The notes: generated by a model not told the origin, from the letters alone. Numbered from the stretch's first letter, positions 117-18,176 are shown. The stretch: 19,792 nt of DNA from Candidatus Bathyarchaeia archaeon (GCA_050010755.1 JBEKKK010000008.1:1-19792); one strand, 5' to 3'. Made by a program: numbers and translations.

Positions 117-249
117 GTTTAACCAAATAGTAGTTTCACCTATTGCCAATTTCAACGTTTTGGTTCAACGCGCGCTTACGCAGAAGACCATTTAATTGGG
201 CGTGCTACTTATATGTAGAACTGAACATTACTTTGGTTGGGTGTCAAAC

Positions 250-999
250 TTGAGCAAAACAAACGAATCGAAAATCCCCAGAAAAGGCGCCCTTATTGCT
301 CTCGGAATAATCTCCATCGTTCTAGTAGCCATCTTGGGCGGTGTGATTGCAGAATACACACTGATGACAAACGACAAGAACAACACAATCTCGACTCTAA
401 ACAATCAGGCTTCTCAACTAAACTCTACGATAGCAAATCTTCAAGGCCAAGTTGCCTCTGCCAATTCCTCCATCAGCGCGCTGACATCAGAGCTTACAAA
501 CATGACCAATAAAGTCACAAACCTAACAAGCGAAGTCACAAACCTAACGAGTGAGGTTACAAATCTGACAAGTCAATTGGCCGCGTTCCTTCCCAACGAT
601 TCAAGCACGTACTTCGCCATTTCAGACCTGGCCGGAACCTATCTAACGATAGGAACCGCATACAACGGCTCGGGCAGCCCGCCTGTTTCCGTCCTGTTCA
701 ACAACCTCGCGTTCAACTGGACACCGGTCGGAGGAGACGCAAGCAACGTTAGAATATTCATTCTGGGAATAACCTACCCCGAACAAACTTGGTGGCCAAA
801 TCTGACCAAAAATGGCACCTCAACTTATACAGGAACGATAGAGCTCGGATCCCCAGTGCTCATCGAAAAACAGGATAACGGAACATACACCTTCCCAATA
901 TTAGTAGACGCAGACCAAGCCAACGGAACGATAACGCTAAACTTCAACGCGACCATGCCGGGGGGCAACTTCATCTGGGTGGGACAGTATGTTTCCTAG
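250..999 (+). CDS. Membrane-anchored surface protein with coiled-coil stalk and C-terminal beta-rich domain
   Basis: ORF 196..999; likely start TTG 250 after TATA-like TTATAT (~209) and GGGTG. N-terminal TM, VTNLTSE heptads, many N-x-S/T sequons. Confidence 0.8.
   Translation: MSKTNESKIPRKGALIALGIISIVLVAILGGVIAEYTLMTNDKNNTISTLNNQASQLNSTIANLQGQVASANSSISALTSELTNMTNKVTNLTSEVTNLTSEVTNLTSQLAAFLPNDSSTYFAISDLAGTYLTIGTAYNGSGSPPVSVLFNNLAFNWTPVGGDASNVRIFILGITYPEQTWWPNLTKNGTSTYTGTIELGSPVLIEKQDNGTYTFPILVDADQANGTITLNFNATMPGGNFIWVGQYVS
514..576 (+). repeat. 3 x 21-bp coding tandem repeat (VTNLTSE heptad)
   Basis: gtcacaaacctaacaagcgaa / gtcacaaacctaacgagtgag / gttacaaatctgacaagtcaa. Confidence 0.9.
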
Positions 1000-1139
1000 T
1001 GTTTAGCACGCGCCAGCACGCACGAAACTTCTTCCGATACACATAGAAAGATGATTACAACAGAAGAATGGTCATCCACAAGACCAAGTCAATAATGAAG
1101 TCTAAAGCTCTTTTTTGGAACGCTGCCTAGGCAACATGG

Positions 1140-1186
1140 ACACACATGTGGATCCATTACGCGGATCCATTACATCAGATGTGTGT
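1140..1186. repeat. Intergenic direct repeat inside an inverted repeat
   Basis: GGATCCATTAC at 1150-1160 and 1163-1173, flanked by ACACACAT (1140-1147) and ATGTGTGT (1179-1186). Confidence 0.7.
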
Positions 1187-1301
1187 GAAAAAAGGGGAGG
1201 GGGCACCCCCAACGATTTGTACATTGTGATCCAAGTGCCTTCGCCTGGTAATCGTCAAACTTAATAGTTGAATTAGCCTATGATTCAGTTAGGTATGCTG
1301 T

Positions 1302-2144
1302 TTGGGAATTTTGTCTGTTATTGAAGAATTTCTCAAGCGAAGTGATGAATTCTTAAAGAATTTGATTGACGAGAAGGGTCTGACCGATTATTTTGTTGAT
1401 GCCAATTTGGCCATCTTGTTGCTTTCGGCTGTTTACGGGGCGACTATGGGAACTTGGGCCGGCGGGTTGTCGATTCTCTACAGTGCATTAAAAGTTCCGA
1501 TACTCCTGCTCATCTCTCTTTATTTAACTGTCCCGAGTTATTATGTGCTCTATTCGCTTCTGGGCGGAAAGCGAACATTGCGTCAGACCACTATGCTCTT
1601 GCTGTTCAGTTTCACCGTGATGGCGACGGTTCTGATTGCCCTCGTTCCCATAAACCTGTTCTTCGTCATCACAACCACGAGATCTTCTAACACGTACGCG
1701 TTCATGGTTCTTCTCAACATTGTAATCTTCACCCTAGCCGGCTTTTTCGCGCTCACCAACTTTGTCAAGGGCGCCAAAGTGCTGTACGGAGAGTCTCTAG
1801 AGAACTGGAAGCCCGCGTTCCTCCTCGGAAGCCTAATCCTCATGATTGTCGGAACCCAGCTGGCATGGGTCCTAAGGCCGTACTTTGATTACTACCCATG
1901 GTTCATAAGGCCACTGGAGAGTAATTTCTACACCGCCATGGTACAACTGGCTTCGCAGTTCATAGGCACGGGCGGAGCTTATCTCATCGCCGCTGTTCTC
2001 GTCATCATCATTGTTTTGCTGTTCGTCACTGCCCTCGGACAAGCTGCAAAAGAGATGCCCCCACTGCCCCCACCTCAATTAGAAAAGACCGAAGAACCCT
2101 CCAAACAGACTATGGGACCCGAAGAAGCCGACTTGACTAAATAG
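1302..2144 (+). CDS. Polytopic membrane protein of unknown function (GTQLAWxLRP family, Yip1-like topology)
   Basis: About 6 hydrophobic segments; YGATMG, KVP and GTQLAWVLRP motifs; Pro-rich acidic tail. Confidence 0.8.
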   Translation: MGILSVIEEFLKRSDEFLKNLIDEKGLTDYFVDANLAILLLSAVYGATMGTWAGGLSILYSALKVPILLLISLYLTVPSYYVLYSLLGGKRTLRQTTMLLLFSFTVMATVLIALVPINLFFVITTTRSSNTYAFMVLLNIVIFTLAGFFALTNFVKGAKVLYGESLENWKPAFLLGSLILMIVGTQLAWVLRPYFDYYPWFIRPLESNFYTAMVQLASQFIGTGGAYLIAAVLVIIIVLLFVTALGQAAKEMPPLPPPQLEKTEEPSKQTMGPEEADLTK

Positions 2145-2271
2145 CACGCGCAATGCAAATGATCACAAATTCATAAATGTTATCAAGCCTCCCCAAACAT
2201 CAGAACAAGAATTAAATAAGAGCGCAACCTAGTCTAACATGCTGAATCTTGGAGTCTGAGGTAGGTAAAGC

Positions 2272-2502
2272 ATGGAGATAGATGAGATTTTCAAACTCTC
2301 AAGAGAGAACGCTGAATGGTTGAAGGAAAACTATGAGAGTCTAAAGAAGAAATACGACAACAAATGGGTCATAATACAAGAGAAGAAAGTGGTGCACAGC
2401 AGTAGCATGTTCGATGAAGTAATGAAAGCTGCAAGGAAATATGACCCTAAAACTGTGATAGTCGAGTTCATGCAAACACAACAGATAGCAATGTTCTTCT
2501 AG
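2272..2502 (+). CDS. DUF5678-like small protein
   Basis: NxEWLxxNYExLxxKYxxKWVII...VV motif; 76 aa; directly upstream of an aspartyl protease gene. Confidence 0.75.
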   Translation: MEIDEIFKLSRENAEWLKENYESLKKKYDNKWVIIQEKKVVHSSSMFDEVMKAARKYDPKTVIVEFMQTQQIAMFF

Positions 2503-2576
2503 TCTATGGTCAAGAGGGGACGGCCATCAAATTCCGTGGTCTAGTCATTGACCGTCGCCCAACGATCCAAGTTCTG

Positions 2577-2969
2577 GTGGAGATTCCAGCTTTTCACAAA
2601 CAGAGAGTCATCAATTTCTTGGTGGATACAGGGTCTGTTTTTTCTGCTATAACAGAAAAAGAAGCAACTCTAATGGGAATAGAGTGTGCAATTCTGCCAG
2701 AAGCAAAGGGGGACGCCATAGGGTTCGGTGGATTCTTCAAGAACAGAATGATAAATAGATCCGTTTTCCTTATCTTCGATTCTGGCAAAGAAAAATATAA
2801 AATCAACTTTAGCAGTGGTCTTAAGGTAATCTGTGTCCCATCTGATCTTGACCAGGAAGACAGAGAAAGGTACTTCAGATTAACGCCTTGCGTTCTTGGG
2901 ATGGATGTCTTGCGATATTTTGAGACACGCGTGAGCAAAGACAGAATAGAATTGGAGTTAATTCCTTGA
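2577..2969 (+). CDS. Retropepsin-like (clan AA) aspartyl protease; true start probably upstream near 2520-2526
   Basis: FLVDTGS catalytic motif, GFGG flap, VLGMDVL motif. The frame is open upstream (IKFRGLVIDRRPTIQVL). Confidence 0.85.
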   Translation: MEIPAFHKQRVINFLVDTGSVFSAITEKEATLMGIECAILPEAKGDAIGFGGFFKNRMINRSVFLIFDSGKEKYKINFSSGLKVICVPSDLDQEDRERYFRLTPCVLGMDVLRYFETRVSKDRIELELIP

Positions 2970-3012
2970 CCTGGCGCGCGTTACTGGAAAAGCTACGTGG
3001 GTCAGCGAAAAA

Positions 3013-4347
3013 CTATCTAGACGATTCTGTGGGAAGCTGTTTTTGTTTCTGTTTTTGTCTTCCTCTCAGGTAGAGTACCGTCAACAGTATGGGCAGGATT
3101 ATGGTGACGATGGACAGTGAAAAAGTGAGGATTGGGAACCCTGGGGAGCGGCCTAAGGCGTATACCATGCCGTCAGGTCCTCCGTCCACGTAAATCAATC
3201 CATCAGCCACGATGGGAGGGCCTTCGAATCCGGGGCTGCCTCGGCTCCAAACGATAGCTCCAGTAGTAGCGTTAAGGCCGTAAATGGTTCCATTAGCTCC
3301 TGCAAAGACAACGTTTCCGGCTACGGCGGGAGACGTAACGATGGAAGCGAAACCGAACTCACTTATCCAAACGGGGGCACCGGTACTGGCGTTCAGACAA
3401 TACAAACAATCGTTAACGGTCGCGTCGTCGCCGTCAGGTGCGAAGTAGACAAGACCGTTAACAACTGCAGCAGACTGCGATATCATGTTAACTGCTGCGT
3501 ATTTCCAGACGAGCGCTCCAGTAGCGGCGTCCAAACAATAGAAGTTGCCGTCCTTTGACCCTGCGTAGACCAGGCCGTTGACAACGGTGGGGGAGCACGG
3601 CGGAGAAAGGCTTCCAAACTCATAATTCATATCGGGACCCGTCGTGTAATTCCAAGAGAGCGATCCATCCGTGGCGTTCAAGCAGCAGATACTGTTGTCG
3701 CAGAGTGCAATGTAGAGCCTGTCTCCAACGACGGCGGGGGAAGACATAGGCCCTTGCACTGCCAGGTTTTTTTCCCAGACGGTGGCGCCCGTGTCAGCGT
3801 TCAGACAGTAGACGGCATAACCTCCAACGTAAACGAGGTTCCCCAAGACGGCTGGAGAAGAGCCTGATGAGCCTGTTTCGGTTTCCCATATGAGCGCACC
3901 CGTTGTGGCGTTCAAAGCATAAAGATAGCCGTTGTTCGACCCCACAAAAACAATGTCTCCTGAAACAGCAGGAGTATCAGAGATCCAATTTTCAGGGGGA
4001 GAACTCTGAGCCCCGTCAGGTATCACGTATTTCCAAACCAGCGCTCCGGTAGCAGCGTTCAAACAGTAAACATTCCCATAGAACGATCCCACGTAGAGAA
4101 GGTTGTTGGCAACGGAGAGATATTGAGTCCAATCGTTTGTATTGTAGCTCCACAACGTGCTGTTTGTTGCTGGGACGCTTGAAGTTGAAACTCCCGTGTG
4201 GCTCACGTCATGATTAAACATCGGCCACCAATCCGTACTCGAAGCCTGAGAGCCATCGTTTGCTTGGACAAAATGAAACGAGAAGGCAGTTATGAATAGG
4301 CTGAAAAATAACAATGCCAACAACGCTGAGAAAAGGATTCCTTTCAC
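3013..4347 (-). CDS. PQQ-binding-like (BamB-type) beta-propeller surface protein with signal peptide and C-terminal TM anchor
   Basis: WPMFxHD motif, about 8 repeats of SPAV..g.vY...YCLNA.TG...W, hydrophobic C-terminus followed by basic residues. Confidence 0.92.
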   Translation of the reverse strand: MKGILFSALLALLFFSLFITAFSFHFVQANDGSQASSTDWWPMFNHDVSHTGVSTSSVPATNSTLWSYNTNDWTQYLSVANNLLYVGSFYGNVYCLNAATGALVWKYVIPDGAQSSPPENWISDTPAVSGDIVFVGSNNGYLYALNATTGALIWETETGSSGSSPAVLGNLVYVGGYAVYCLNADTGATVWEKNLAVQGPMSSPAVVGDRLYIALCDNSICCLNATDGSLSWNYTTGPDMNYEFGSLSPPCSPTVVNGLVYAGSKDGNFYCLDAATGALVWKYAAVNMISQSAAVVNGLVYFAPDGDDATVNDCLYCLNASTGAPVWISEFGFASIVTSPAVAGNVVFAGANGTIYGLNATTGAIVWSRGSPGFEGPPIVADGLIYVDGGPDGMVYALGRSPGFPILTFSLSIVTIILPILLTVLYLRGRQKQKQKQLPTESSR

Positions 4348-4528
4348 CCGTTTTCTCCCCTGTTAAAGATTATGGCGCCTAGGAAATCAAATTTGTGGTT
4401 TCCGCGGAGCTGTTGCCCAAGCGCGATAACGTGCTTCTTTCGGGGTATGCCAACATTTTCAATTACCATTAGTCACAAGACTATTCTATTTGATTCCACC
4501 GCGCACCGCTAAACCAGTGCGTACAGCA

Positions 4529-5041
4529 TTATCCTTCCGTTCTTCTGATATACTCGATTTTCTGTTTTGTCCTGTTCTCTACCGACAAAGCCGTTATGAA
4601 AGGTTCCCCAAATTCATTGGAAACCTGCTCCCTCTCAGTCCGCAGCAGACCCTTCTTCTCGACAGTAAATGCGCAACCGCTGAAAAGGCCCGTTATAGCT
4701 ACCTTGTCATCCCCGGCAACGTCGAGGTCGGCCAAGTACTTTACCAGAATGCTAGTGCCCGCATCGTCTTCGAGATAGAAATACGTCGCCGAGGCCATCG
4801 ACTCCACAGTTTTTGGCCCGCTCATGAAACCCCAAGTCTGCACCGTCGTCTGATCCGTCTCATCGATGCTGACCACACCCTTCACTTGACCCTCGACACT
4901 CACGGCTTTTGTATGGTACTGCTGTTGATGATGAAGAAGCTCGAGAACGCTTAACTTCACAGGCGACAATTCTGATGCCATCTTTCCTAGTTCATTCCAA
5001 GCGAAAGCTGGAAACTTCATGCTAAAATCTTTTGTTGACAC
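4529..5041 (-). CDS. Hypothetical protein, probable OB-fold
   Basis: KAVSVEGQV...FYLEDDAGTSILV...GDDKVAITG pattern; GGGTGA RBS and TATA-like box upstream. Confidence 0.7.
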   Translation of the reverse strand: MSTKDFSMKFPAFAWNELGKMASELSPVKLSVLELLHHQQQYHTKAVSVEGQVKGVVSIDETDQTTVQTWGFMSGPKTVESMASATYFYLEDDAGTSILVKYLADLDVAGDDKVAITGLFSGCAFTVEKKGLLRTEREQVSNEFGEPFITALSVENRTKQKIEYIRRTEG

Positions 5042-5456
5042 GACAAATCACCCGTTAATTGCATCATCCGTAGAACTATATATAACTTCAAGCACGCGCT
5101 AAGCCAAATTAGCTCAAATCTCAGGCGACGCTGAACGCAAATTTTTAACCTACTCATACAGGCTCAATTGATTTTGGGAATATGGATGTCTTAGTCAGCC
5201 AAGAGCGCGTGCTGTTCAAGAAACGGAAGTGAATGAAAAATGGGCCGGGAGAGGTTTGAACATGGCCTAACTTGGAGAGGTCTCCCGCACAATTCCCTTT
5301 TTTTGTGTACCCCGCTGATGCTTTTAGATACAGAGTCAATGAATCGTTGGGCGTGGTGGGCAATTGAGCATAGAGGCGCGCGACTTAGAACAGTGAACTG
5401 CAAGGATCAGAAGTCTTATATTTAGAGCATTGGAACAACCAGTTTGGCGAAAAATC

Positions 5457-6080
5457 ATGTTAAAATCTGAGAATTCAACTCCTATGCCTTCCGCACCTCC
5501 TATTCCTCCCCCATTAGGTGCAACGCCCAAGAGTCGTATGAAGCTTATCATTGCTTCCATACTCATAATCGTCGTTGTCATCGCGGCCGTTCTAGGTTTC
5601 TGGCTGTTGAGATCTGGAGGAGGAAACCAGTCATGGATTTTTAAAGGGGCCTACGCGAACTTTCAGGGACAGGAAACACTAGCAGGCTTGGGTTACACTC
5701 TGAACATGACGATTCACATGGAAGTCTTGGGCTTCAACAGCACGGAAGTGGAGATATTCTCAAACACTACCTCGGAAACAGGGTTAGGAACGCCCTTCAG
5801 CTACAATTATACATCGTGGATGCTTCGCACCAGCGCTAACGACTTCAACGTCGAAGGCGGAAATTTGACTAACAGCTATGACACAACCGTCACATTGAGC
5901 AACTTGGGGAAACGCAACTGCATAGCCTATGAATACTCGATCTCGGGAATAAATGAGACCATGACAGTATACGTTGACAAAACAGTAGACTTTCCAGTCG
6001 AGTGGAGCGTGACCTCCACAGGAACCCCCAGCCTCAACTTTGACGTCACTCTAGTATCAACGAACATACCTGGCCTGTAG
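5457..6080 (+). CDS. Membrane-anchored extracellular protein
   Basis: ORF 5430..6080, ATG at 5457 preferred. Pro-rich N-terminus, single TM, Thr/Asn-rich beta domain ending TNIPGL. Confidence 0.8.
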   Translation: MLKSENSTPMPSAPPIPPPLGATPKSRMKLIIASILIIVVVIAAVLGFWLLRSGGGNQSWIFKGAYANFQGQETLAGLGYTLNMTIHMEVLGFNSTEVEIFSNTTSETGLGTPFSYNYTSWMLRTSANDFNVEGGNLTNSYDTTVTLSNLGKRNCIAYEYSISGINETMTVYVDKTVDFPVEWSVTSTGTPSLNFDVTLVSTNIPGL

Positions 6081-6321
6081 TTGACGCGTGCTAACGCTCC
6101 CTTCCCTTAACTCCGCTCTCTCAAAATCCTGTCTTCTCCTCGATGGCCAAATGCAGAGGCATCAGGTACTTTGCAAATTGATTTCGGAGCAACCCCGCGG
6201 GCTAAGCCTTGTGGAAAGATCTTTCATATCAGCGCAAGCCGTACTGGTTTTAGAACAGGCTGTTCTAATGCTTGGCATTAAGTCGAGGCAAGACACATTA
6301 ATTATTCGAGGTGCTCCGAGA

Positions 6322-6720
6322 GTGGTTCCTGTTAGGGAGGCACAAAAACGTAGCATGTTGATTGTAGTTATTGCCATCGCATCAGCTTTTGTTGTGATCG
6401 TTCCATTGTTTGGCGTGTTTGGTTTTCCACTTTATCCTGTTCCTGTGCCGGTGACCGTTGATGAGCTCAATGCGAATCCAGGCTTCTGGGTTGGAAGAAC
6501 AGTAATTGTTGAAGGACAAATCAGATTCATGCTCTCAATTCCGGAAGACAAACTAAAATTTCTTCTCGTGCTTCGTTCGGAAGATGGAATCATCGGAATT
6601 GACTTTAAAAACCCAGGCTTCAGCGTGTATGACCAGAACGTCACAGTCATAGGAATAGTCAAACGTACGTTGATCTATGAAGCGTACTATCTGGAAGCCT
6701 ATGTATTTTTCAAAAAGTAG
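6322..6720 (+). CDS. Membrane-anchored OB-fold-like protein
   Basis: GAGGTG RBS (6308-6313) before GTG 6322; TM then VTVDEL..P..WVGRTVIVEG...NVTVIG. The upstream part of ORF 6088..6720 looks non-coding. Confidence 0.7.
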   Translation: MVPVREAQKRSMLIVVIAIASAFVVIVPLFGVFGFPLYPVPVPVTVDELNANPGFWVGRTVIVEGQIRFMLSIPEDKLKFLLVLRSEDGIIGIDFKNPGFSVYDQNVTVIGIVKRTLIYEAYYLEAYVFFKK

Positions 6721-6892
6721 GAAGACGGGTCGAAACCGTGCCTAGCCCTCGAGCGCGCCTGGTGGACTGGTAATAATCGACCTTCTCACTCATTAGCGCT
6801 AGAAAATTACAAAAAACTACTAAACTCTAGCCCCGAAAAAAGTGGGGGGTTTGGCCTAGACTTTGCCAAGTCTATGCGTAGCGCGTGCCGTG

Positions 6893-7474
6893 CTAGGCGT
6901 GGCTTTCGAAGTTTCTGGCTACCAGTGTGACGTCTTCCATGTTGACTGTGCCATCGCCGTTGATGTCTGCAGCAGGGTTCCAGTTTGGACCGCCTGGAGT
7001 AGAGCCGAATGCTCTGGCAACCAACGCAATGTCCCTCAGGTCGACTACTCCGTCACCATTGACATCGCCCAGAAGTTTGATTGTGACGTTCCCGTCGGAG
7101 AGTGTGGTCGAGCCCGTGGGTATCGTTGCGACTGCTGTAAGCGTGTAGTTTTGGTAGGGGACGCCCTCAGTGTTCCACGTGAATGTGAACGTCAAGCTCT
7201 GTCCAACGCCCAACGACAGTCGGTACGTGTTCACGCTCTCGGCGGCTGTCACGTTGTAGTAGACGGTGACTGACACGGCGGGTTCATTGAAATCTCCGAC
7301 GTTCTTGACCGTGACGTTGATTGTGAGTGTTCCTCCTCGGTAGACCCATGTAGTGCTGGCTGTTAAGTTCGTCACCATGACTTCATGGATACCAGTCTCG
7401 GAAGCGCGGGCGCTAAAGAGGGGCAAAACCATCAACAACAAAAGCAAAATCACTATTGAGCTAAGCTGCTTCAT
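6893..7474 (-). CDS. Secreted CARDB (Ig-like) plus type I dockerin domain protein
   Basis: AAGGAG RBS before ATG 7474; signal peptide; INVTVKNVG CARDB motif; GDVNGDGVVDLRD and ADINGDGTVNMED Ca-binding loops. Confidence 0.9.
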   Translation of the reverse strand: MKQLSSIVILLLLLMVLPLFSARASETGIHEVMVTNLTASTTWVYRGGTLTINVTVKNVGDFNEPAVSVTVYYNVTAAESVNTYRLSLGVGQSLTFTFTWNTEGVPYQNYTLTAVATIPTGSTTLSDGNVTIKLLGDVNGDGVVDLRDIALVARAFGSTPGGPNWNPAADINGDGTVNMEDVTLVARNFESHA

Positions 7475-7755
7475 TTCTCCTTTCTCCGTGCAACAAATGA
7501 TGGACAATTCAAAGAATTAACATTTGTGGAACGCTCTTCTATAACATATTACAGCACAGCCCACGCTCTTGAGCGCGCTTTCCAAGACTCACAATGTTTT
7601 AGTCGCTAAGGTACGGTACTCTGATTAGAAACACCTGTCGTAATGTTGAGAGCTTGCGTTTTGGCCCCTTATTCCGGTTGCGCGCGCAATCAGTCTGCGC
7701 GTTGCGCCAGAACATCTTTGCACAAGTCTTATCTGTTTGTTGAACTACGTATAAA

Positions 7756-9438
7756 ATGGAGAAGGGGAAGATGCGGAAGGTATTTTCTGGATTAGTTATG
7801 CTTATGCTTCTGGTCGGCACGTTAGCCGCGGGGTTTAAGATTCAACCAGCAAGTGCGGACAATGTTGATTGGTGGCCAATGTTTCATCACGACCTCAGCC
7901 ACTCGGGAACTTCAACATCAACAGCCCCAACCACAAACAACACCCTCTGGACATACACGACAGGCAGCTATGTGTGGTCCTCTCCTGCCGTTGTCGGCGG
8001 TCTCGTCTACGTTGGATCTGCTGATGATAAGGTATACTGCCTGAACGTTGCTACCGGATCGTTCGTCTGGAGCTACATGACAAATGGCTCTGTGTATTCT
8101 TCTCCTGCCGTTGTTGGTGGCCTGGTCTACATAGGGTCGTTGGACAGGAATGTCTACTGCCTGAATGCAACTGACGGAACGTTCGTCTGGAGCTACACGA
8201 CAGGAGGCCCGGTGGAGTATTCTTCTCCTGCCGTTGTTGGCGGTCTGGTCTACGTAGGATCTTATGATTATAGGGTATATTGCCTGAACGCTGCTACCGG
8301 AGCGTTCGTCTGGAGCTACCTGACAGGCAGCTATGTGTGGTCTTCTCCTGCTGTCGTTGGTGGCCTGGCCTACGTAGGATCTGCTGATCATAACGTTTAC
8401 TGCCTGAACGCCGCAACTGGAGCGCTCGTCTGGAACTACACCACAGGCAACTGGGTGGAGTCTTCTCCTACAGTTGTTGGTGGCCTCGTCTACGTCGGAT
8501 CAGTAGATAATAAGGTATACTGCCTGAACGCTGCTACCGGAGCCTTCGTCTGGAGCTACTTGACAAATGCCACGGTTCAGCCTTCTCCTGCCGTTGCTAG
8601 CGGCCTAGTCTATGTGGGATCTAATAATGATAATATTTACTGCCTGAACGCTACTACCGGAGCGCCCGTCTGGAGCTACATGACAGGCGGCTATGTACAG
8701 TCTTCTCCTGCCGTTGCTAGCGGCTTAGTCTATGTGGGATCTAGTGATGATAATGTTTACTGCCTGAACGCTACTACCGGAGCGCCCGTCTGGAGCTACA
8801 TGACAGGTAACGTGGTGCGGTCTTCTCCTGCCGTGGCCAACGGAGTAGTTTACGTAGCATCACAAGATGACAATATCTACGCTATCAGCAGCGGTGTTCT
8901 ATTAAGCGTCGGCTCGAACGTCACGGTTTCTCCGACAAACAACCTTAACCTGACCTTCGCGAACGTTACAGCCGCGGGCATTGCAACCGCGAGCGGAACG
9001 CCGACTGTTCAAGCGCCCGTTCTGAACAACACCGTGGGATTATACTACGTCATCAACGTAATGGCCAGTTTTTCTGGCAACGTGACGGTGAGCCTAGCCT
9101 TTGACGGGTCAAACATGACGCAACAACAGAAAAACAGCCTGACTATGGTGCAGTACACGCCGATAGTGGGCGACGTCCAATCCCCGTTCGGCACGGTTAA
9201 CATGAGGGACATTGCGTATATTGCAAGGCACTTCGGGACAAACTCCGCGAGTCCCAACTGGGATCCCGTCTGTGACCTCAACAGTGACGGCAAAATAGAC
9301 ATGAAAGACATGGCCTTGGTGGCTAGGCACTTCGGGTTCACCGCCAGCTGGGTAATCATCACCACTTACGTTGACACGACGAGCAACGTCATATACGGAA
9401 GCACAACCCACTTCTCGTTCATAGGAATACACTCGTGA
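7756..9438 (+). CDS. Secreted PQQ-like beta-propeller protein with C-terminal beta domain containing a dockerin
   Basis: Signal peptide, WWPMFHHD, 8 x ~40-aa repeats, dockerin (GDV..FGTVNMRD / DLNSDGKIDMKD), C-terminal TTHFS. Start may be ATG 7771. Confidence 0.92.
   Translation: MEKGKMRKVFSGLVMLMLLVGTLAAGFKIQPASADNVDWWPMFHHDLSHSGTSTSTAPTTNNTLWTYTTGSYVWSSPAVVGGLVYVGSADDKVYCLNVATGSFVWSYMTNGSVYSSPAVVGGLVYIGSLDRNVYCLNATDGTFVWSYTTGGPVEYSSPAVVGGLVYVGSYDYRVYCLNAATGAFVWSYLTGSYVWSSPAVVGGLAYVGSADHNVYCLNAATGALVWNYTTGNWVESSPTVVGGLVYVGSVDNKVYCLNAATGAFVWSYLTNATVQPSPAVASGLVYVGSNNDNIYCLNATTGAPVWSYMTGGYVQSSPAVASGLVYVGSSDDNVYCLNATTGAPVWSYMTGNVVRSSPAVANGVVYVASQDDNIYAISSGVLLSVGSNVTVSPTNNLNLTFANVTAAGIATASGTPTVQAPVLNNTVGLYYVINVMASFSGNVTVSLAFDGSNMTQQQKNSLTMVQYTPIVGDVQSPFGTVNMRDIAYIARHFGTNSASPNWDPVCDLNSDGKIDMKDMALVARHFGFTASWVIITTYVDTTSNVIYGSTTHFSFIGIHS
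7945..8885 (+). repeat. About 8 x 120-bp coding tandem repeats (propeller blades)
   Basis: Recurring tcttctcctgccgttg...tactgcctgaacgc...gtctggagctac; 8581-8700 and 8701-8820 are nearly identical. Confidence 0.9.
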
Positions 9439-9525
9439 AATGCAGGAGGAACACCCCGCGCTGCAAACTCTTAAGAGTACGCGTTAGATGTGTAAGATTG
9501 CCGTTTCCGTGGGCTGGGTTGATTC

Positions 9526-10662
9526 TTGAAGAAGTCTTTGGTAATTCTCGGAGCTGGATATGGCGGTTTGCTGACAGCGGTTAAACTTGAAGAGAAAGCA
9601 AAGCGTTTGAAAGATGTAGAGATTGTTCTCGTTGACCGCAATGATTATCATCAGTACCTGCATCTCGCCTACGAGATAGTCACAGGCGTCAAGAAAGTCT
9701 CCGATCTCACAATACCATTGTCCGAGTTGTTGAAGAAGCGAAAAATCCGGTTTCTACAGGCGAGTGTATATTCAATCGACTTTGCCGACAAACTAGTAAG
9801 GACCGACAAGGGCGACTTGCCCTACTGGGAACTCGTAATCGCGCTCGGAAGCGAACCGAACTATTGCCACATCAAAGGGGCTGAAGAACACTCCTTCTGC
9901 GTCAGCTCTGTAGAAGCAGCCGCGCAAATCAGGGACAACCTCAAGAAGACCCTCGCTCAGAAAAAGAAAAACACGATCGTGGTCGGCGGCGGAGGCTTCA
10001 CCGGCGTCGAGTTGGCAGGAGAAATCGTGGACGAACACAAATGCTGCGTCACGATAATCGAAGGCTCCAAAACCCTGCTTCCAACATGGAACATCCCAGA
10101 ATTCTCCAGAAAAGTAGCCAACGTCCTGACCGAAATGGGAGCCAAACTCATCCTCGGCAAATTCATCGCCGAAGTAAAACAGGACACCGTCGTCTTGAAT
10201 GATGGCAGCCAAGTTGAATGCTCTCTCTTCATCTGGACCGGAGGAGTACAAGGCTCCCATGTGACCGGCTGCAGCGGCATGAAGACCGAGAAAGGCAACA
10301 GGGTGAAGATCAACGAGTTCTGCGAAGCCGTCGGGTTTCCGGGCGTCTACGTAGTGGGCGACTGCGCCCTCGTGGTTGATCCCAAAACCGGAGAAACTCT
10401 TCCTCAGTGCGTTGAGATTGCCCTGCAACAAGCCGAAGTGGTAGCCCAGAACTTGTACGCGGATGTAACAAAAAACGAAAGAACCGTTTACATCCCCAAG
10501 TTCAGCGGGTTAATCCTAGCCGTGGGTGAGAAGTACGGCATTGGAAAGATTTCCGGAGTAAAGGTAGAGGGGCGACTTGCCCAAACGATTAAGACAATGA
10601 TCCATCTGCGCTACGTCTACGAAATAGCCGGCCTTGGAAAAGTACTCAAAGAAGCCACATAG
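9526..10662 (+). CDS. ndh: NAD(P)/FAD-dependent oxidoreductase, type II NADH dehydrogenase-like
   Basis: GAGYGG and GGGFTGVELAGE Rossmann motifs, LVIALGS, WTGGV, VYVVGD. Confidence 0.85.
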   Translation: MKKSLVILGAGYGGLLTAVKLEEKAKRLKDVEIVLVDRNDYHQYLHLAYEIVTGVKKVSDLTIPLSELLKKRKIRFLQASVYSIDFADKLVRTDKGDLPYWELVIALGSEPNYCHIKGAEEHSFCVSSVEAAAQIRDNLKKTLAQKKKNTIVVGGGGFTGVELAGEIVDEHKCCVTIIEGSKTLLPTWNIPEFSRKVANVLTEMGAKLILGKFIAEVKQDTVVLNDGSQVECSLFIWTGGVQGSHVTGCSGMKTEKGNRVKINEFCEAVGFPGVYVVGDCALVVDPKTGETLPQCVEIALQQAEVVAQNLYADVTKNERTVYIPKFSGLILAVGEKYGIGKISGVKVEGRLAQTIKTMIHLRYVYEIAGLGKVLKEAT

Positions 10663-10736
10663 ATGAGGCACACGCCAAAATCTCAATTCCCGAATCCAAA
10701 CTGGATTTTTATGTAACTTGAGACTAATTTGCAAGT

Positions 10737-11720
10737 GTGAAAATGAAAGCCATTGTGCGCACACGGTACGGTTCACCGGATGTTCTTCAACTCAAAGAGG
10801 TGCCGAAACCAGCTCCCAAGAACGATGAGGTACTCATAAAAATATATGCGACAACAGTAAACCGAACAGACTGTGCCTTCTTGAGAGGTAACCAATTCAT
10901 TAACAGACTTGTCAGCGGCCTCCTCCGACCGAAGAGAACGATATTGGGGAATGAGTTCGCCGGAGAAATTGAAGAAGTAGGCAAAGACGTCAAATCATTC
11001 AAGAATGCTGACCGTGTTTTCGGATTCAGCGGACTCAGGTTTGGCGCCCACGCCGAGTATATGACCATGCCCGAACAAGGCATACTTACTGCTATGCCAG
11101 CGAACATGACCTATGAAGAAGCCGCCCCAAGCACCGAAGGCGGACTCTATGCACTCAACGATATTAGAAAAGCAAACGTTCAAAGCGGACAAAAAGTCCT
11201 GATCAACGGCGCAACGGGCGCCATCGGTTCAGCAGCAGTCCAGCTTGCGAAATATTACGGTGCGGAAGTTACAGCGGTGTGCAACACCCGGAATGCAAAA
11301 CTAGTAAAATCTCTCGGAGCCGACAAGATAATCGACTACACACAGGAAGATTTCACAAAAAGCGGTCAAGACTATGATTTTGTTTTTGACGCCGTTGGCA
11401 AGAGTTCATTTGGCGCCTGCAAAAAACTGCTAAAACCAGGCGGAATTTATTGCTCAACCGACCTCGGTTTCATGTCGCAGAACCTATTCCTGACACTATG
11501 GACCTCAAAATTCGGCAGCAAAAAAGTCATATTTCCAATCCCAAAAGAACGAAAAGAAACCATCCTTTTCTTCAAAGAACTAATTGAGGCGGGAAAGTTC
11601 AGACCGATAATAGACAGACGCTATCCGCTGGAACAAATTGCCGAAGCCTACAGGTATGTCGAGGCAGGCCAAAAAACAGGAAATGTAGTCATAATTGTGG
11701 GACACGATGACAGAACCTAA
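10737..11720 (+). CDS. NAD(P)-dependent MDR-family (zinc-independent, quinone-reductase-like) oxidoreductase
   Basis: MKAIV...YGSPDVL, VLINGATGAIGSAAVQLAK, IIDRRYPLEQI, KTGNVVI. Start GTG 10737 or ATG 10743. Confidence 0.9.
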   Translation: MKMKAIVRTRYGSPDVLQLKEVPKPAPKNDEVLIKIYATTVNRTDCAFLRGNQFINRLVSGLLRPKRTILGNEFAGEIEEVGKDVKSFKNADRVFGFSGLRFGAHAEYMTMPEQGILTAMPANMTYEEAAPSTEGGLYALNDIRKANVQSGQKVLINGATGAIGSAAVQLAKYYGAEVTAVCNTRNAKLVKSLGADKIIDYTQEDFTKSGQDYDFVFDAVGKSSFGACKKLLKPGGIYCSTDLGFMSQNLFLTLWTSKFGSKKVIFPIPKERKETILFFKELIEAGKFRPIIDRRYPLEQIAEAYRYVEAGQKTGNVVIIVGHDDRT

Positions 11721-11764
11721 TAAAGCAACTTGTGCGGCAACACTGATTTCGGAACACGCACAAT

Positions 11765-11918
11765 CAACATGGAAATTCACAATGGTTTGTCACAATGCAA
11801 CATTATAATTAATGTCACAAACGTAGAGGCGAGGGGCGAAACGCAACATGGAAACCTTACAAAGCAACATTACATTGCAACATTATCAGTCTTAGTGACT
11901 TGTTTAGGACACAACATT
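11765..11918 (+). repeat. Cluster of short direct repeats (CAACAT x6, TGTCACAA x2)
   Basis: CAACAT at 11765, 11798, 11844, 11865, 11878, 11912; TGTCACAA at 11788 and 11813. Confidence 0.7.
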
Positions 11919-11934
11919 TATAGATGTTTTCTGA

Positions 11935-11995
11935 ATCAATTAATCAGTTGATTAAAAAAGCCTTTCTGCATCAGTTAATCAGTGAATTAAAAAAG
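11935..11995. promoter_or_regulatory. Two 26-bp direct repeats with palindromic TTAA-N8-TTAA cores (operator-like)
   Basis: ATCAATTAATCAGTTGATTAAAAAAG (11935-11960) and ATCAGTTAATCAGTGAATTAAAAAAG (11970-11995). Confidence 0.65.
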
Positions 11996-12027
11996 GGAAA
12001 GGCTCCAAATTCTCCGTTAAACTTTTA

Positions 12028-12043
12028 CGGAAAATGTTTTATG
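12028..12043 (+). promoter_or_regulatory. Putative BRE/TATA promoter for the structured RNA
   Basis: CGGAAAATG followed by TTTTATG, about 25 bp upstream of 12067. Confidence 0.5.
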
Positions 12044-12064
12044 CTCATTACAACATATTAGCGT

Positions 12065-12148
12065 TTGGTGTCTAGGGCTCGTTCAAGCACGGGTACTCCG
12101 TCTTACATACGGGGCAACTATGCCAACGGGTGCAACCCTAGACACCAA
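12065..12148 (+). ncRNA. Cloverleaf tRNA-like structured RNA candidate
   Basis: 13-bp closing stem 12065-77/12136-48; arm CTCGT/ACGGG; arm CTCCGT/ACGGGG with 7-nt loop CTTACAT; weak third arm; ends ACCA. Confidence 0.6.
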
Positions 12149-12179
12149 TTATGTCGGTTTGTGGTGTTCTGGAAGGTCG

Positions 12180-12223
12180 GTTTACTTCTGGTTTACTTTG
12201 CGTTTACTTTCTGTTTACTATAC
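12180..12223 (+). repeat. 4 x 11-bp tandem repeat GTTTACTnnnn
   Basis: GTTTACTTCTG GTTTACTTTGC GTTTACTTTCT GTTTACTATAC. Confidence 0.9.
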
Positions 12224-12368
12224 CTACAGCGCGCGCTATTCTTAATAAGTCTTACTAATTTCTGAACAAAACTTTTTTCCATGGAAACTGTTTAGTTTTT
12301 TGTTAAGTTTTTGGTTTGGAAAAATCTTAAATCTGCACAGCTTAGAAAGTAGAATTGAGAGAAAAGGT

Positions 12369-12845
12369 TTGGTTCCAAACAATGAAGAGACCAAGATTAT
12401 TGATGAAGTAGTGGCGTATATCAAAAAGAAGTATGGCAAATATGCAACCATTAAATTTGAAGTCTTTGAACCACTAACTCCAGAGTGGAAAAGTAAATTC
12501 AAGCATCCTCTTGGCGGATATGCTTGGGGCGACAACTGGACTAATTTTCATATTAATTTAACAAGATGTAAAGACAAAAAAGCGTTCTCTGAACTTGTTT
12601 TCCATGAAATCTATGAAAATATAGTCCATGCTGGACATGAAATAGTTGTTCCAGAAGAAAGACGATATATTGAAGAAGAATTGAAAGTCAAACTTGATAA
12701 ATGGGAACCTCTCCAAGATGAAATGATTAGAACACTTTATTATGTAGATAAAAAAATGTTAGAAGATTCTTTCAAAAATTGTGGAGAACAATCGAAAACT
12801 CCACAAGAGATAAATCAACGAGCAAAAGAACTTGGGTTTTTCTAG
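12369..12845 (+). CDS. Hypothetical protein with zincin-like metallopeptidase-type motif
   Basis: ORF 12300..12845; likely TTG start 12369 after promoter GAAAAATCTTAAAT. LGGYA...FHEIYENIVHAGHE. Confidence 0.65.
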   Translation: MVPNNEETKIIDEVVAYIKKKYGKYATIKFEVFEPLTPEWKSKFKHPLGGYAWGDNWTNFHINLTRCKDKKAFSELVFHEIYENIVHAGHEIVVPEERRYIEEELKVKLDKWEPLQDEMIRTLYYVDKKMLEDSFKNCGEQSKTPQEINQRAKELGFF

Positions 12846-12944
12846 TTTTCGTCATGCGACACAAAAGGCTCTAGTCAAGCTGAAAAAAACCAATACCAAA
12901 AAGCCTATTATCTGAGGGAAAATCATAGGTTTTACTAGGTAGTC

Positions 12945-13682
12945 ATGTCCCGAACTAAAAAACTCCTTACCATCGGAATACTGATTACAATAGTAGGTGT
13001 GATAGTGTACTTTTCTCCAACGATATCGTCCTATTTTCAAAGTTCCTCTTCTAATTCTTCAAATAATCCTAGTGCTTCTTTCACAACACTGATGATTAGA
13101 GCACCGTATAGCGGGCATGAAGAAAATTTTACCACTGTTGACTTCGGTGACACGGAATATAATTTTCTTTATGGTTCGGGATGGCTTGCCGTTTATGCTC
13201 CTCTTCAAGCAGAGTATCCGATTTCATACCCAGAAGTTGGGGACACTTACAACGCCTTTGGTTTGGAGATAAAAATAGAGAATGTCAGTTCAGACTATCT
13301 CTCCGATTATGTCATATTTGGAGTCAAACCTACGGTCACTAATTATATGTATTCTACATACCGTTACACAGAAGTTAATCTCACTCTTGAACAGAGTCAA
13401 CCAATTCAGTATGGAACAGTGCCTTTAACGAACTACAGCGTAACAGTGAGTATTAGTAGTGGTATAATCAACGAAACAAATCAGTACACATTTACATACA
13501 CCAATGCTCCCTCTGGAACCTATGGTGCAACATTGGTTGTGAGTAACTCTTCTCAATCTAAACAATATGAGGCTTATGTTGGGTCATTCGTTGCGGGGGC
13601 TGAAACAGATTTCAATATTGAAATCGGAGTTTACAAAGCAGATGCAAATAATATGATAATCTATGTGAAACCTCTCTATTGA
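12945..13682 (+). CDS. Membrane-anchored extracellular protein with two similar beta-rich halves
   Basis: N-terminal TM, Ser/Asn linker, halves ending FGLEIKI...GVKP and FNIEIGV...YVKP. Confidence 0.8.
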   Translation: MSRTKKLLTIGILITIVGVIVYFSPTISSYFQSSSSNSSNNPSASFTTLMIRAPYSGHEENFTTVDFGDTEYNFLYGSGWLAVYAPLQAEYPISYPEVGDTYNAFGLEIKIENVSSDYLSDYVIFGVKPTVTNYMYSTYRYTEVNLTLEQSQPIQYGTVPLTNYSVTVSISSGIINETNQYTFTYTNAPSGTYGATLVVSNSSQSKQYEAYVGSFVAGAETDFNIEIGVYKADANNMIIYVKPLY

Positions 13683-13774
13683 CTCTCTCGGAAAACGGAA
13701 AACCAAAAAGAGGGAAGAAGGGTAAGGAAAGGCGCGCGCTACAAACTAGGGGGGTTCAAAAATGAGGGAAAAGA

Positions 13775-14221
13775 ATGTTAGCTGAGAAAATTCTAACGGA
13801 AAAGGAGCAAGAAGACCATTTAAACAATAATTGGAAGGTCAACCCAAAGGTAACCTTTACATTTCCAGAAGGGCTAAGAATACGGACAGGGCATTTGCTT
13901 GAACGCATTGTTGTTAAGGATTCAATCGAGCCATCAGTCAATTATTGGAACATTCTAGATTTTATTAAGTTTCAACATGACCCTGATAATCTTTGGCTAA
14001 GAATAACATACTATCGCTATTTGAAAGACGAGATTGTCAGAACTAAGAAAGGTAAAATCACAAACAAAAGATGGATTTTCGCTGGGCAAACATCGATTTC
14101 AGACCCGATAAGTGCATTTGAGAGATTGTTTGTGAAGGCAATAAAAGAAGACAAAAGTGGAAAATGGATACGACCTCTTTTCAAAAATATCATGAAGGAA
14201 TGCCATAAGGAATTAGAATAG
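13775..14221 (+). CDS. Hypothetical basic soluble protein
   Basis: 148-aa ORF with GAGG RBS; LRITYYR...WIFAGQTS segment; family not recognised with confidence. Confidence 0.7.
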   Translation: MLAEKILTEKEQEDHLNNNWKVNPKVTFTFPEGLRIRTGHLLERIVVKDSIEPSVNYWNILDFIKFQHDPDNLWLRITYYRYLKDEIVRTKKGKITNKRWIFAGQTSISDPISAFERLFVKAIKEDKSGKWIRPLFKNIMKECHKELE

Positions 14222-14685
14222 GCTTATAGAATAGAAAAGGCTCTTAGTCAAGTTGAAAGAGGAAAGTGACCGAGCGAATTAACAGCTTTTGTTAAGCCAC
14301 TAACCTAAGATTCCCATGATGGACCCACACCATGAAGATAGGGACCGTATTCTACTGGTTTTCGTCCATCTACAGACAAGCGGGGGAGTTTGCGGCACGG
14401 TTTAGGCTTGTTTTCCTGTTCTGAGCCTGTCGGACGAGTTCGACCTATGGTATGTAAATCATTATTTAGTTGTTTATTCCATGCTTTTGGCTGTTATCAA
14501 TCGAACAAAGAACGAAACCATGCTTTATTGGATTGTCCTACCTAGTACATAGGCGACTTTTTACGGATGGTATTTTTAGAATCAACAATTTAACTCTTTG
14601 AAAGGGCGCTTATACTCCACTTTCTACAGAGCCTTTCTACAGAAACTTGGATGCTAACACTTTTTGTTCTGGCTCTTGACCATGC

Positions 14686-15333
14686 TCAACCGTTGAATCT
14701 GGGTTTAGTGTCGAACCGTCCTCTAGGCTCAAACCGTGTCTTAGGTGCTGTCTCAGTGGCTTTCTCTGGTGTGCTCTGATGTTGATGTAAGTGGTTTAGT
14801 ATTGCTATAGCTGTTGGCTCTCTAGGACCAGAGTATTGGTCGAGAGTTGTTAATGATGTGCTTGACGGACCCGAAATTTTTCGTTTTCGTGGTTTGAGTC
14901 GTTGAGCTAGTGAGTAGAGTTTCGACTTGAATAAGTGTCGTATGAATGTTGCTCGGTTTGTTGTGTCGGCATGAACACCGACTTCGATTAGAACTATTCC
15001 GAGCTTTTTGATTTGTTGCTTTATGAAATCGGAGAAGAGAGCGAAGCTAACCACGAGAACCCAGAGCAATTTGTGAAAAGGGTCTTTCCGCTTGAAATAG
15101 TCGAGTTTGTTGAGCATTATTTTGTCGTTGAGGAAAGTTGTTTCTTTCGGATTGGTGCACTCGATTAAGGTTTTGTCTCGAATTACACCGTCAACAACAT
15201 TATGATTGTCGTTCGGGTAGATTGATGGATTAAAATTGTTGTGCTCGTACTGAGAACCCAGACCGCGCATTTCGAAAAACCGAGCTATGTACTTCTCAAA
15301 TGGAATTCCGTTAAGATACAAAGCTGTGTCCAT
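14686..15333 (-). CDS. PD-(D/E)xK superfamily nuclease, Mrr-catalytic-domain-like
   Basis: GIPFEKYIARFF helix, VDGV..., LIECT (K replaced by T), VLVVS...FS, GIVLIE; low-complexity C-terminal tail. Confidence 0.7.
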   Translation of the reverse strand: MDTALYLNGIPFEKYIARFFEMRGLGSQYEHNNFNPSIYPNDNHNVVDGVIRDKTLIECTNPKETTFLNDKIMLNKLDYFKRKDPFHKLLWVLVVSFALFSDFIKQQIKKLGIVLIEVGVHADTTNRATFIRHLFKSKLYSLAQRLKPRKRKISGPSSTSLTTLDQYSGPREPTAIAILNHLHQHQSTPEKATETAPKTRFEPRGRFDTKPRFNG

Positions 15334-15382
15334 TGTCGTTTTCTATCCATTTCCTAGCTTGTTTCACTATAATAGACCAATA

Positions 15383-15407
15383 GCACCGTTGCTTTTAAGC
15401 TTTATGC
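15383..15407 (-). promoter_or_regulatory. BRE/TATA promoter copy 1 (nuclease gene)
   Basis: Minus strand GCATAAAGCTTAAAAGCAACGGTGC, about 50 bp upstream of ATG 15333. Confidence 0.65.
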
Positions 15408-15412
15408 CAGAA

Positions 15413-15495
15413 TTAAGCTATTGATTAAAAAAGCGGCATGTATTGTTGTTCTACAGCTAAACCGACCTCAATTTGCGAATTAATCAATAGCTTAA
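15413..15495. promoter_or_regulatory. Perfect 16-bp inverted repeat, operator-like
   Basis: TTAAGCTATTGATTAA (15413-15428) and TTAATCAATAGCTTAA (15480-15495). Confidence 0.7.
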
Positions 15496-15505
15496 ACTTT
15501 TGGTC

Positions 15506-15618
15506 AAAAAAGCTCTCTTCAACGGGGATTTGGTGAATGGACAGAAGAGCGGGGCGATGTGAAGATTTGAACGAAGCTCAAAGCCTAAACAAGCTATCCC
15601 CGCTCTAAATGGACATCT
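15506..15618 (-). ncRNA. Candidate ~110-nt sRNA with complementarity to the nuclease mRNA leader
   Basis: Lies downstream of promoter copy 2; long hairpin 15546-15606 with G-U pairs only on the minus strand; T6 run at 15506-15511. Confidence 0.55.
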
Positions 15619-15628
15619 AATGCTATGT

Positions 15629-15653
15629 GCATCGTTGCTTTTAAGCTTTATGC
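15629..15653 (-). promoter_or_regulatory. BRE/TATA promoter copy 2 (24/25 identical to copy 1)
   Basis: Minus strand GCATAAAGCTTAAAAGCAACGATGC; no sizeable ORF follows. Confidence 0.65.
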
Positions 15654-15723
15654 TCTGAGAGGCTCGAATTCTGTCTTATTCTTGAAAATAGGCTCATTTT
15701 AAACACTTTTTGATATGTAGAAG

Positions 15724-15738
15724 CGAAAGCTTTAAATA
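15724..15738 (+). promoter_or_regulatory. BRE/TATA promoter of the rightward operon
   Basis: CGAAAGC followed by TTTAAATA, about 40 bp upstream of ATG 15777. Confidence 0.75.
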
Positions 15739-15776
15739 CCCAAATTGGGCTTAATTATCATAAATAGGCGATAATC

Positions 15777-16771: not shown

Positions 16772-16896
16772 AGAAGAAAGTTAAGAAACTAACTATCCCT
16801 GTCATCTTTCGAAGAGAAGCTCTGAATCACGAAACCCTAAAAACAATCTCAGCTTACTTCGAGTCGAGCGTCACTTTTGAAGTCTCGAAAGACGAA

Positions 16897-17181: not shown

Positions 17182-17185
17182 AGAG

Positions 17186-17446: not shown

Positions 17447-17550
17447 AATCAGTACGAAGACACGAAGGTTTCTTCATGATGGTCGTATTGACAGTTTCGG
17501 ACATGTTTCCTTCGTGCCTTCTTAATCACAGTAATTAAAAGGTGAAAAAT

Positions 17551-18174: not shown

Positions 18175-18176
18175 AA

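Follow-up and report, generated by a model that had tools for sequence, protein, structure and literature searches.

A genus-specific intergenic octamer and its association with structural breakpoints and accessory genes in Bathyarchaeia

The stretch of DNA analysed here, called the window throughout, is the 19,792-nucleotide sequence JBEKKK010000008.1:1-19792 of a Candidatus Bathyarchaeia archaeon (GCA_050010755.1). It is an entire contig (C8) of the host genome (G000), which comprises 2.19 Mb in 8 contigs with a GC content of 47.7% and is 93% complete. Here we describe a palindromic octamer, GCRCGYGC, with the commonest form GCGCGCGC, copies of which lie between the genes of this window. Its distribution is intergenic, specific to one genus and clustered in islands, and the motif is found in excess at structural breakpoints between related genomes. 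All of the genomes compared are metagenome-assembled, and the relatives are few and related to each other.

Genes and motif copies in the window

The genes of the window are unrelated stand-alone units in mixed orientation. Their products include a coiled-coil protein, PQQ-type beta-propellers with dockerin, a CARDB/dockerin protein, a pyridine-nucleotide disulphide oxidoreductase and a zinc alcohol dehydrogenase, and many of the open reading frames (ORFs) belong to no family. The window is accessory DNA; at the DNA level almost nothing in it has a homolog in the other four members of the genus (G001-G004). Public sequencing runs that hold the window derive from peat, wetland, freshwater-sediment and soil metagenomes. 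A search of the window with Rfam returned no family at gathering score, and ARAGORN predicted no tRNA in the window or in island 2 of the host genome.

Eight exact GCRCGYGC copies are present in the window, against an expectation of 0.76 +/- 0.80 from 200 dinucleotide-preserving shuffles; the highest count in any shuffle was 3, and none of the 200 reached 8. An initial sequence-only reading had placed these copies at 1006, 2144, 5092, 5205, 6881, 7680, 12229 and 13732 and had expected fewer than one by chance; all eight were confirmed, each between retained ORFs. The form GCACGCGC occurs at 1006..1013, 6 bp past the stop at 999, at 2144..2151, where its first G is the last base of the TAG stop of the gene at 1302-2144, and at 5092..5099, in the gap 5041-5430, which contains a second copy reading GCGCGTGC at 5205..5212. 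A further GCGCGTGC copy lies at 6881..6888, 4 bp past the stop of the minus-strand CARDB/dockerin gene (6893-7507). The remaining three copies read GCGCGCGC and are located at 7680..7687, in the divergent gap 7507-7756, at 12229..12236 and at 13732..13739, the last 35 bp upstream of the ATG at 13775; the latter two are followed by TA. In a related strain (run X5), TAA is inserted immediately behind 7687.

The spacing of 0-7 bp that the same reading gave for copies behind the stops at 999, 2144, 2969, 6080, 6893 and 10662 was correct. Its list of one-mismatch copies was accurate copy by copy, but the class as a whole does not exceed chance, with 23 matches of at most one mismatch in the window against 16.05 expected, a number reached by 12 of the 200 shuffles. 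Among the listed copies only ACGCGCGC at 168..175, which sits at a homology breakpoint, and GCGCGCGT at 2974..2981, 4 bp past the stop at 2969, are single-transition variants of (GC)4. Two other claims had to be given up. The motif had been said to mark most gene boundaries; a strict copy is present in 7 of the 20 gaps of the window, all of them among the first 13, and in 12-18% of gaps genome-wide. The presence of GCACGCGC on the coding strand behind three stops is a coincidence, the genome-wide comparison being 20 to 15 (p = 0.5).

Distribution, sequence and lineage of the motif

The host genome contains 388 GCRCGYGC copies, 309 of which fall in the 19.4% of the sequence called intergenic, corresponding to 0.73 copies per kb of intergenic and 0.045 per kb of coding sequence (16-fold). 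With Markov models of orders 0-3 fitted separately to the two compartments, 298 intergenic copies compare with 12.6-60.7 expected, and 79 coding copies with 50.6-90.8 expected; a sixth-order expectation was discarded because sub-words of the motif are themselves enriched. Since the coding count is as expected while the intergenic count is in excess, the signal is a positive intergenic one and not an avoidance of coding sequence, so that the intergenic enrichment proposed from the window alone holds strongly for the whole genome. For 13 other G+C-containing palindromic hexamers, the ratios of intergenic to coding occurrence were 0.6-1.3.

Copies are carried by 119 of 1001 tandem gaps (12%), 46 of 354 divergent gaps (13%) and 60 of 325 convergent gaps (18%), and the motif is densest in the convergent class (1.05 per kb, versus 0.55 in divergent gaps). 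Within divergent gaps, 56 of the 58 copies are at least 50 bp away from the nearest start. The interval from -3 to +10 around a stop holds 37 of the 309 intergenic copies and 5.8% of positions, about twice the expectation, and 11 of the 638 TAG stops genome-wide overlap the motif via its first G. This mild bias would be in keeping with a site for termination or for a chromatin protein, which the sequence-only reading had offered as one option. No orientation bias was detected, either of the flanking A/T with respect to gene direction or of GCACGCGC versus GCGCGTGC with respect to the coding strand. Genes adjoining the motif are slightly shorter and have a slightly lower GC content and coding score.

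The consensus of the genomic copies is (T)A-GCGCGCGC-T(A), with a core of (GC)4. The flanks are weak, with A at position -1 in 49% and T at +1 in 51% of sites and a still weaker T at -2 and A at +2; within 20 bp there is no conservation beyond +/-2, nor is there a fixed spacing to an A/T-rich promoter element or a T-run. When maximal alternating runs of at least 7 bases were counted, exact GCGCGCGC was the commonest form (147 runs, 125 of them intergenic), and CGCGCGCG, of equal length, was rare (22 runs, 20 intergenic). This preference, 125 to 20 between genes, points to a reading of the sequence rather than of mere alternation, and speaks against the suggestion that a Z-DNA-prone character alone accounts for the motif. 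Intergenic single-base variants are mostly transitions, at about 18-42 copies each and at every position, and most internal transversions number about 7-18. The R and Y positions of the original consensus are part of this general decay, as transition variants prevail at all positions, and the degenerate consensus is better replaced by (GC)4. An extended palindrome or hairpin around the motif was not found: 338 of 366 sites extend the palindrome by at most 1 bp, and flank complementarity at offsets 1-20 is 0.23-0.30, versus 0.21-0.28 in controls. Taken together, the palindromy, the sharp preference for phase and length and the hundreds of intergenic copies confined to one genus favour a symmetric factor that recognizes the sequence specifically.

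The lineage restriction was assessed with the 12-mer TAGCGCGCGCTA, which has 10, 3, 9, 23 and 16 copies in the five genomes of the genus. Among 26 further relatives from the family and order, 24 have none and the remaining two have 1 and 3 copies; the reversed control has 0 copies in all 31 genomes. Within the host genome the sites are over-dispersed (variance/mean of 3.0 over 105 bins of 20 kb) and accumulate in three islands, at C1:930-985 kb, C1:1340-1375 kb and C2:65-95 kb. The densest 20 kb (C1:1,350,000-1,370,000) holds 24 copies, located at most gene boundaries there. In the related genome G004, the motif reaches 4.48 copies per 10 kb in DNA specific to that genome versus 1.36 in DNA shared with G002, a 3.3x difference.

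The cargo of the islands comprises genes for P-type ATPases, a glycosyltransferase, an old-yellow-enzyme-type oxidoreductase, PhzF, type IV-pilus-like ATPases and beta-helix surface proteins. A CAP12/Pycsar-type TIR-domain gene, defence-like, is also located within the cargo (C1:1351735-1352796; L070:11735-12796). Island 1 includes a gene pair encoding an MvaI/BcnI-family endonuclease and an N4/N6 methyltransferase (C1:958628-960352; L094:10628-12352), flanked by motif copies on both sides (956503; 960399/960401). A complete extra TBP gene (203 bits) was observed in G004 (C1:104874-105440; L036:4874-5440); this paralog sits in a 1.1-kb G004-specific insert, and the corresponding G002 site has no insert.

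Breakpoints, strain variation and candidate enzymes

G004 and G002 have 93-97% DNA identity and were compared over 287 kb of aligned sequence, in which 53 structural events were recognized. In 27 of the 53 events, one or more of the four junction ends had a strict copy no farther than 15 bp away, against 18% expected from non-ORF positions (p = 5.5e-8). With one-transition variants allowed, the figures were 33 of 53 and 24.8%, and an earlier subset of events had given 12 of 22 with the motif against 11% expected. The idea that breakpoints of gene gain, loss and reordering fall at the octamer is supported by 27 of 53 events as well as by 6 of 6 junctions in one reordering. The plus-strand gene at 1302..2144 of the window, a stand-alone accessory gene without Pfam family that behaves as a movable unit, has counterparts of 83% DNA identity in G002 and G004; each is a single gene, and synteny does not extend to its flanks. 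At the homolog locus, two units stand in swapped order between G002 and G004, and all 6 homology breakpoints lie on GCGCGC-like sequence. Another locus, near G004:C1:125-130 kb, measures 4.3 kb in G004 and 2.2 kb in G002, and G000 holds nothing there but a bare GCGCGCGC. Single genes that lie side by side in G002 are scattered over the more distant host genome (85-92% identity), and the joints often carry the motif. The segment G004:C1:280-300 kb has almost no counterpart in G002. Motif copies are conserved between G002 and G004 to the same degree as neighbouring 8-mers (62% vs 63%).

Strain variation within the window was derived from the Logan contigs of four metagenome runs. Within the host assembly itself, positions 1-167 match the final 168 bases of contig C1 in reverse complement at about 93% identity; this similarity halts at the left edge of the copy at 168, and the matches to G004 and G003 end at 166-168. 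The pyridine-nucleotide disulphide oxidoreductase gene (9526-10662, plus strand) belongs to a unit, 9455..10682, that is replaced whole in another strain. An X5 contig joins 9455 to 10682 with 184 other letters in between, so that 9456-10681 is exchanged as a unit, and X5 and X9 contigs also break at 9455/9457. The edges of this unit are degenerate motif-like sequences, the left one reading CCGCGCTG and the right one lying 7 bp past GCACACGC at 10668. An ortholog of the oxidoreductase was not found in G001-G004 (best match 29% amino-acid identity), and a 66%-identical ortholog exists in another, uncultured Bathyarchaeia genome.

A second intergenic repeat, of about 75 bp, was observed at ~1131-1215 and 11776-11885 of the window. 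It has the layout GCAACATGG..GCAACATTACA..GCAACATTACATCTGATGTAAAGAAAAAAAGGGGAGGGGG, with tandem GCAACATTACA units and a short hairpin, and is present in 30 strict copies in the host genome (e.g. C1:128191, C1:192576, C2:1357), where its words head the list of 8-mers in excess. Its places in the window show very high depth and many loose ends in metagenome contigs and are therefore regarded as strain breakpoints. With 0 copies in the G002 sample and 1 in the G004 sample, this repeat was too infrequent to serve as a control for the breakpoint test.

Two further observations concern the window itself. Its right part (12000-19792) has a low GC content (36-43%) and ORFs without significant Pfam or PHROGs family; for 10 ORFs of this low-GC part, PHROGs gave no match. 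There are no motif copies beyond 13739, and the strains in runs X5 and X9 leave the window uncovered past ~12.5 kb. Its terminal 74 bp recur without a mismatch at both ends of contig C2, which are inverted copies of each other (91.6% identical), each with a divergent recombinase-like gene of at least 424 amino acids. This right part may be an integrated element. The short stretch 5273-5334 has matches of up to 97% elsewhere in the genus (G003:C3:210825-210856), with loose ends on either side in run X10, and is another small repeat.

The host genome encodes tyrosine recombinases, one of which (non-Xer, 432 amino acids) is located at C1:1348836-1350134. The surrounding segment, C1:1348651-1350134 (L070:8651-10134), consists of the archaeal RNase P RNA gene (197 bits) and the recombinase gene, and the densest motif array follows directly, so that the densest island begins beside this recombinase. 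This arrangement suggests an island that integrated at the RNase P RNA gene. The first ~45 codons of the over-long recombinase ORF are in fact the RNA gene, which explains matches of 65-93% in many genomes. This island-border recombinase scored 72.8 bits against a cut-off of 220 for NF040815, and the other recombinase 51.3 bits against a cut-off of 265 for TIGR02249. A divergent recombinase-like family has five copies in the host genome, including those at both C2 ends. Tyrosine-recombinase paralogs also lie at C1:204308-205615, C3:24574-25623 and C7:14778-15584. No match to the Y1 transposase family PF01797 was found in the host genome (93% complete), the control being positive in 6 of 14 known genomes. 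C5 methyltransferases (PF00145) were above cut-off in none of the five genus genomes, N4/N6 types not being surveyed. The only restriction-modification pair seen is the MvaI/BcnI-family pair of island 1, a family that reads CCWGG or CCSGG; the palindrome and fixed phase of the motif would fit a restriction site, and the site is avoided nowhere. An all-against-all BLASTP of the gene calls of the host genome yielded paralog families and no obvious high-copy transposase, although collapsed repeats could hide one.

Interpretation and relation to known systems

The excess at junctions, the motif-bounded cargo, the loci at which a third genome holds only the motif and the island arrays argue that the motif partakes in, or is deposited by, the joining of accessory DNA. 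More specifically, we consider it an even call that GCGCGCGC, with its weak (T)A...T(A) flank and its transition-decayed variants, is the joint left behind or used in the insertion, excision and reordering of stand-alone accessory genes in this genus of Bathyarchaeia. That the motif is the actual crossover or cut site is our inference. A sequence-specific factor, probably a dimer since the site is a strict palindrome with fixed phase, would cut or synapse the 8-mer; units bounded by the 8-mer would join, in either orientation, to further copies or to secondary sites; and recombination between two copies would drop the cargo and leave a solo copy. The cases of a deletion accompanied by a motif, and the solo copies, could have arisen when a motif-bounded unit inserted and was then excised from copy to copy, a history of two presumed steps. 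A tyrosine recombinase, a restriction-like nuclease or end joining via the self-complementary 8-mer are conceivable agents. A bolder version, which we think less likely than not, takes GCGCGCGC to be the complete core of an undescribed archaeal cassette system, in which a genus-specific dimeric enzyme, acting in trans on hundreds of copies, would insert, invert, excise and reorder single accessory genes (defence, transport, surface-protein), the solo copies being empty sites. We likewise see a genuine, though less than even, chance that the motif is a new kind of recombination site.

Several observations weigh against a cassette joint of this kind. The site is only 8 bp long and lacks conserved arms; known tyrosine or serine recombinase sites span about 28-40 bp. 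No enzyme follows the distribution of the motif: close orthologs of the island integrase are missing from G001, G003 and G004, a search at E <= 1e-15 did not recover the divergent recombinase-like family in G002 or G003, and neither recombinase group is present in all five genomes. Among the 53 events, 26 have no strict copy, and the null model for the junctions takes the four ends of an event as independent. In the comparison of G002 with G000, the motif was found at 12 of 30 breaks versus 5 of 25 collinear gaps, which is suggestive only. Most strain breakpoints that metagenome contigs reveal in the window (1131-1235, 11841-11885, 11938 and 12341) are off the motif, the first two sitting on the separate ~75-bp repeat. 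The gene calls are our own, from a crude hexamer-trained ORF caller with over-long starts.

Polarity adds to these difficulties. With G000 as the sole outgroup, 14 of 45 collinear events could be polarised. In four of these (two deletions and two insertions) the motif occurs in the derived state only and at neither ancestral end; examples are a 2.5-kb deletion replaced by TAGCACGCGC and a 6-kb insert bounded on both sides by motif-type sequence, on one side in the form of a two-transition variant. One event has the motif only in the ancestor, a bare (GC)5 being replaced exactly by a 992-bp insert. In the other nine the motif is absent, and several of them are clean insertions with short overlaps. 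Pure presence or absence of the 10-bp AGCGCGCGCG was also found; this indel and the cases with the motif only in the derived state need either a two-step history or insertion at a secondary site. A second class of events consists of clean 1.9-4.1-kb insertions in G002 relative to G004 (at G004:C12:14867, C12:35112, C15:20890 and C15:41522), whose flanking alignments overlap by 7-18 bp and whose ends carry no GCGCGCGC; the overlaps resemble target duplications or attachment (att) repeats. Since the motif is involved in no more than about half of the structural breakpoints and stands at several derived junctions whose ancestor had none, a simple motif-by-motif crossover is not the whole story.

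The alternative that we take most seriously, while thinking it somewhat unlikely, is that the motif is bound by a DNA-binding protein peculiar to this genus, which could act as an insulator, as a roadblock terminator or by silencing foreign genes. The motif would then travel with accessory genes or be selected beside them, and its presence at breakpoints would be a by-product, because genes move as complete units that end at a boundary element. A dimeric binder fits the strict palindrome and fixed phase, and a boundary function suits copies that are confined to intergenic sequence, enriched beside accessory genes, concentrated just past stops (37 of 309) and in convergent gaps, and in divergent gaps kept at least 50 bp from starts in 56 of 58 cases. 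A binding site held by selection sits poorly, however, with copies that are conserved no better than neighbouring 8-mers between G002 and G004, that keep no fixed spacing to a promoter element or T-run, and that occupy only 12-18% of gaps; it also leaves unexplained the loss of homology within a few bases of the motif and the 2.5-kb deletion replaced by just TAGCACGCGC. In a further, improbable alternative the motif is a fragile or mutagenic self-complementary G+C 8-mer, which would stall replication or be nicked and then serve as microhomology in end joining, its copies spreading passively. Any two copies could anneal in either orientation, in keeping with the mixed gene orientation; copy turnover is fast, single-base variants are mainly transitions, and the motif stands at derived deletion junctions. 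Passive fragility does not account for a 5- to 24-fold intergenic excess over the Markov expectation, for the restriction to one genus, or for the preference for GCGCGCGC over CGCGCGCG and for a length of 8, and coding sequence shows the expected count without depletion.

The genus restriction (5 of 5 genomes of the genus versus 2 of 26 others), together with hundreds of short copies in both orientations and their association with exchanged DNA, would also be compatible with a tag for self-recognition, comparable to the DNA uptake sequences known from Neisseria and Pasteurellaceae, which would bias uptake or recombination towards the same genus. We rate this as highly improbable: uptake sequences need not lie at an insertion junction and are frequent in genes too, whereas the motif sits at the junction and has no coding excess. 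It is scarcely credible, finally, that the pattern is a product of chance, composition or assembly. All genomes are metagenome assemblies and the gene calls are our own, but no shuffle reached the window count, the genome-wide excess is more than 200 copies, the motif occurs in five separate assemblies of the genus, contigs from the runs of other studies cover the motif sites of the window, and an 8-mer is far shorter than any assembler word.

Among known systems, the motif would act most like an integron or pdif-type cassette system, and its distribution resembles that of repetitive extragenic palindromic (REP) elements. The sequence-only reading had found no resemblance to either attC or pdif, and for attC this was confirmed. 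attC sites are imperfect inverted repeats of some tens to more than 100 bases, and the attC tests failed here, with no flank pairing and no conservation beyond +/-2. Xer sites comprise 28 bp with two conserved arms, and compared with this layout alone, the motif again lacks conserved flanks beyond +/-2; what it would share with pdif/Xer-site modules is that genes are bounded by short recombination sites and can move in either orientation. The likeness to the gene cassettes of integrons, including the archaeal integrons of Ghaly et al. 2022 (PMC9668308), lies in unrelated stand-alone genes each bounded by a recurring site, in an order reshuffled between relatives with breakpoints at that site, and in a tyrosine recombinase beside the densest array; the main text of that paper does not contain the string "Bathyarchae". 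Here the site has 8 bp and lacks an imperfect inverted repeat of the attC type, genes point in mixed directions, the recombinase beside the array falls far below the cut-offs of the integron and XerA models, and copies are spread chromosome-wide.

REP elements, with their bacterial interspersed mosaic elements (BIMEs) and REP-associated tyrosine transposases (RAYTs), are comparable in being intergenic only, palindromic, numbered in the hundreds, more frequent at 3' ends and in convergent gaps, lineage-specific and linked to genome plasticity. REPs are hairpin-forming units of 20-40 nt with a conserved head, whereas the motif is only an 8-mer without extended pairing, and no Y1 transposase was found in the host genome. 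HIP1 (GCGATCGC) of cyanobacteria resembles the motif in its length of 8 bp, its G+C-rich palindromy and its strong over-representation within a single lineage; it is common within genes as well and has been tied to methyltransferases. The proposed analogy with HIP1 is not supported: the motif shows no coding enrichment (79 vs 50.6-90.8), and a C5 methyltransferase was above cut-off in none of the five genus genomes. The mobile G+C clusters of yeast mitochondria share short, intergenic, G+C-palindromic insertions that are polymorphic between strains, often lie beside TAG and are deletion hot spots, with a mobilising enzyme that is unknown. Those clusters are organellar and measure about 30-50 bp with internal structure, whereas the unit described here has 8-10 bp and resides in an archaeal chromosome. 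No description of the motif was found in the open-access literature.

Bathyarchaeia are abundant, uncultured archaea. If the motif is the site of a boundary protein, it would count among the rare regulatory words that are both genome-wide and specific to one genus in an uncultured archaeon. If it is a cassette joint, an 8-bp word would predict the points at which genes enter and leave these genomes, and would provide a simple handle for mapping accessory genes, including defence genes, in metagenomes. It would also offer a concrete target in the search for the enzyme, which would act on a site of unusually small size and would be of interest as a tool. If the 8 bp are the complete core, the recombination site would be far smaller than any known recombinase target.

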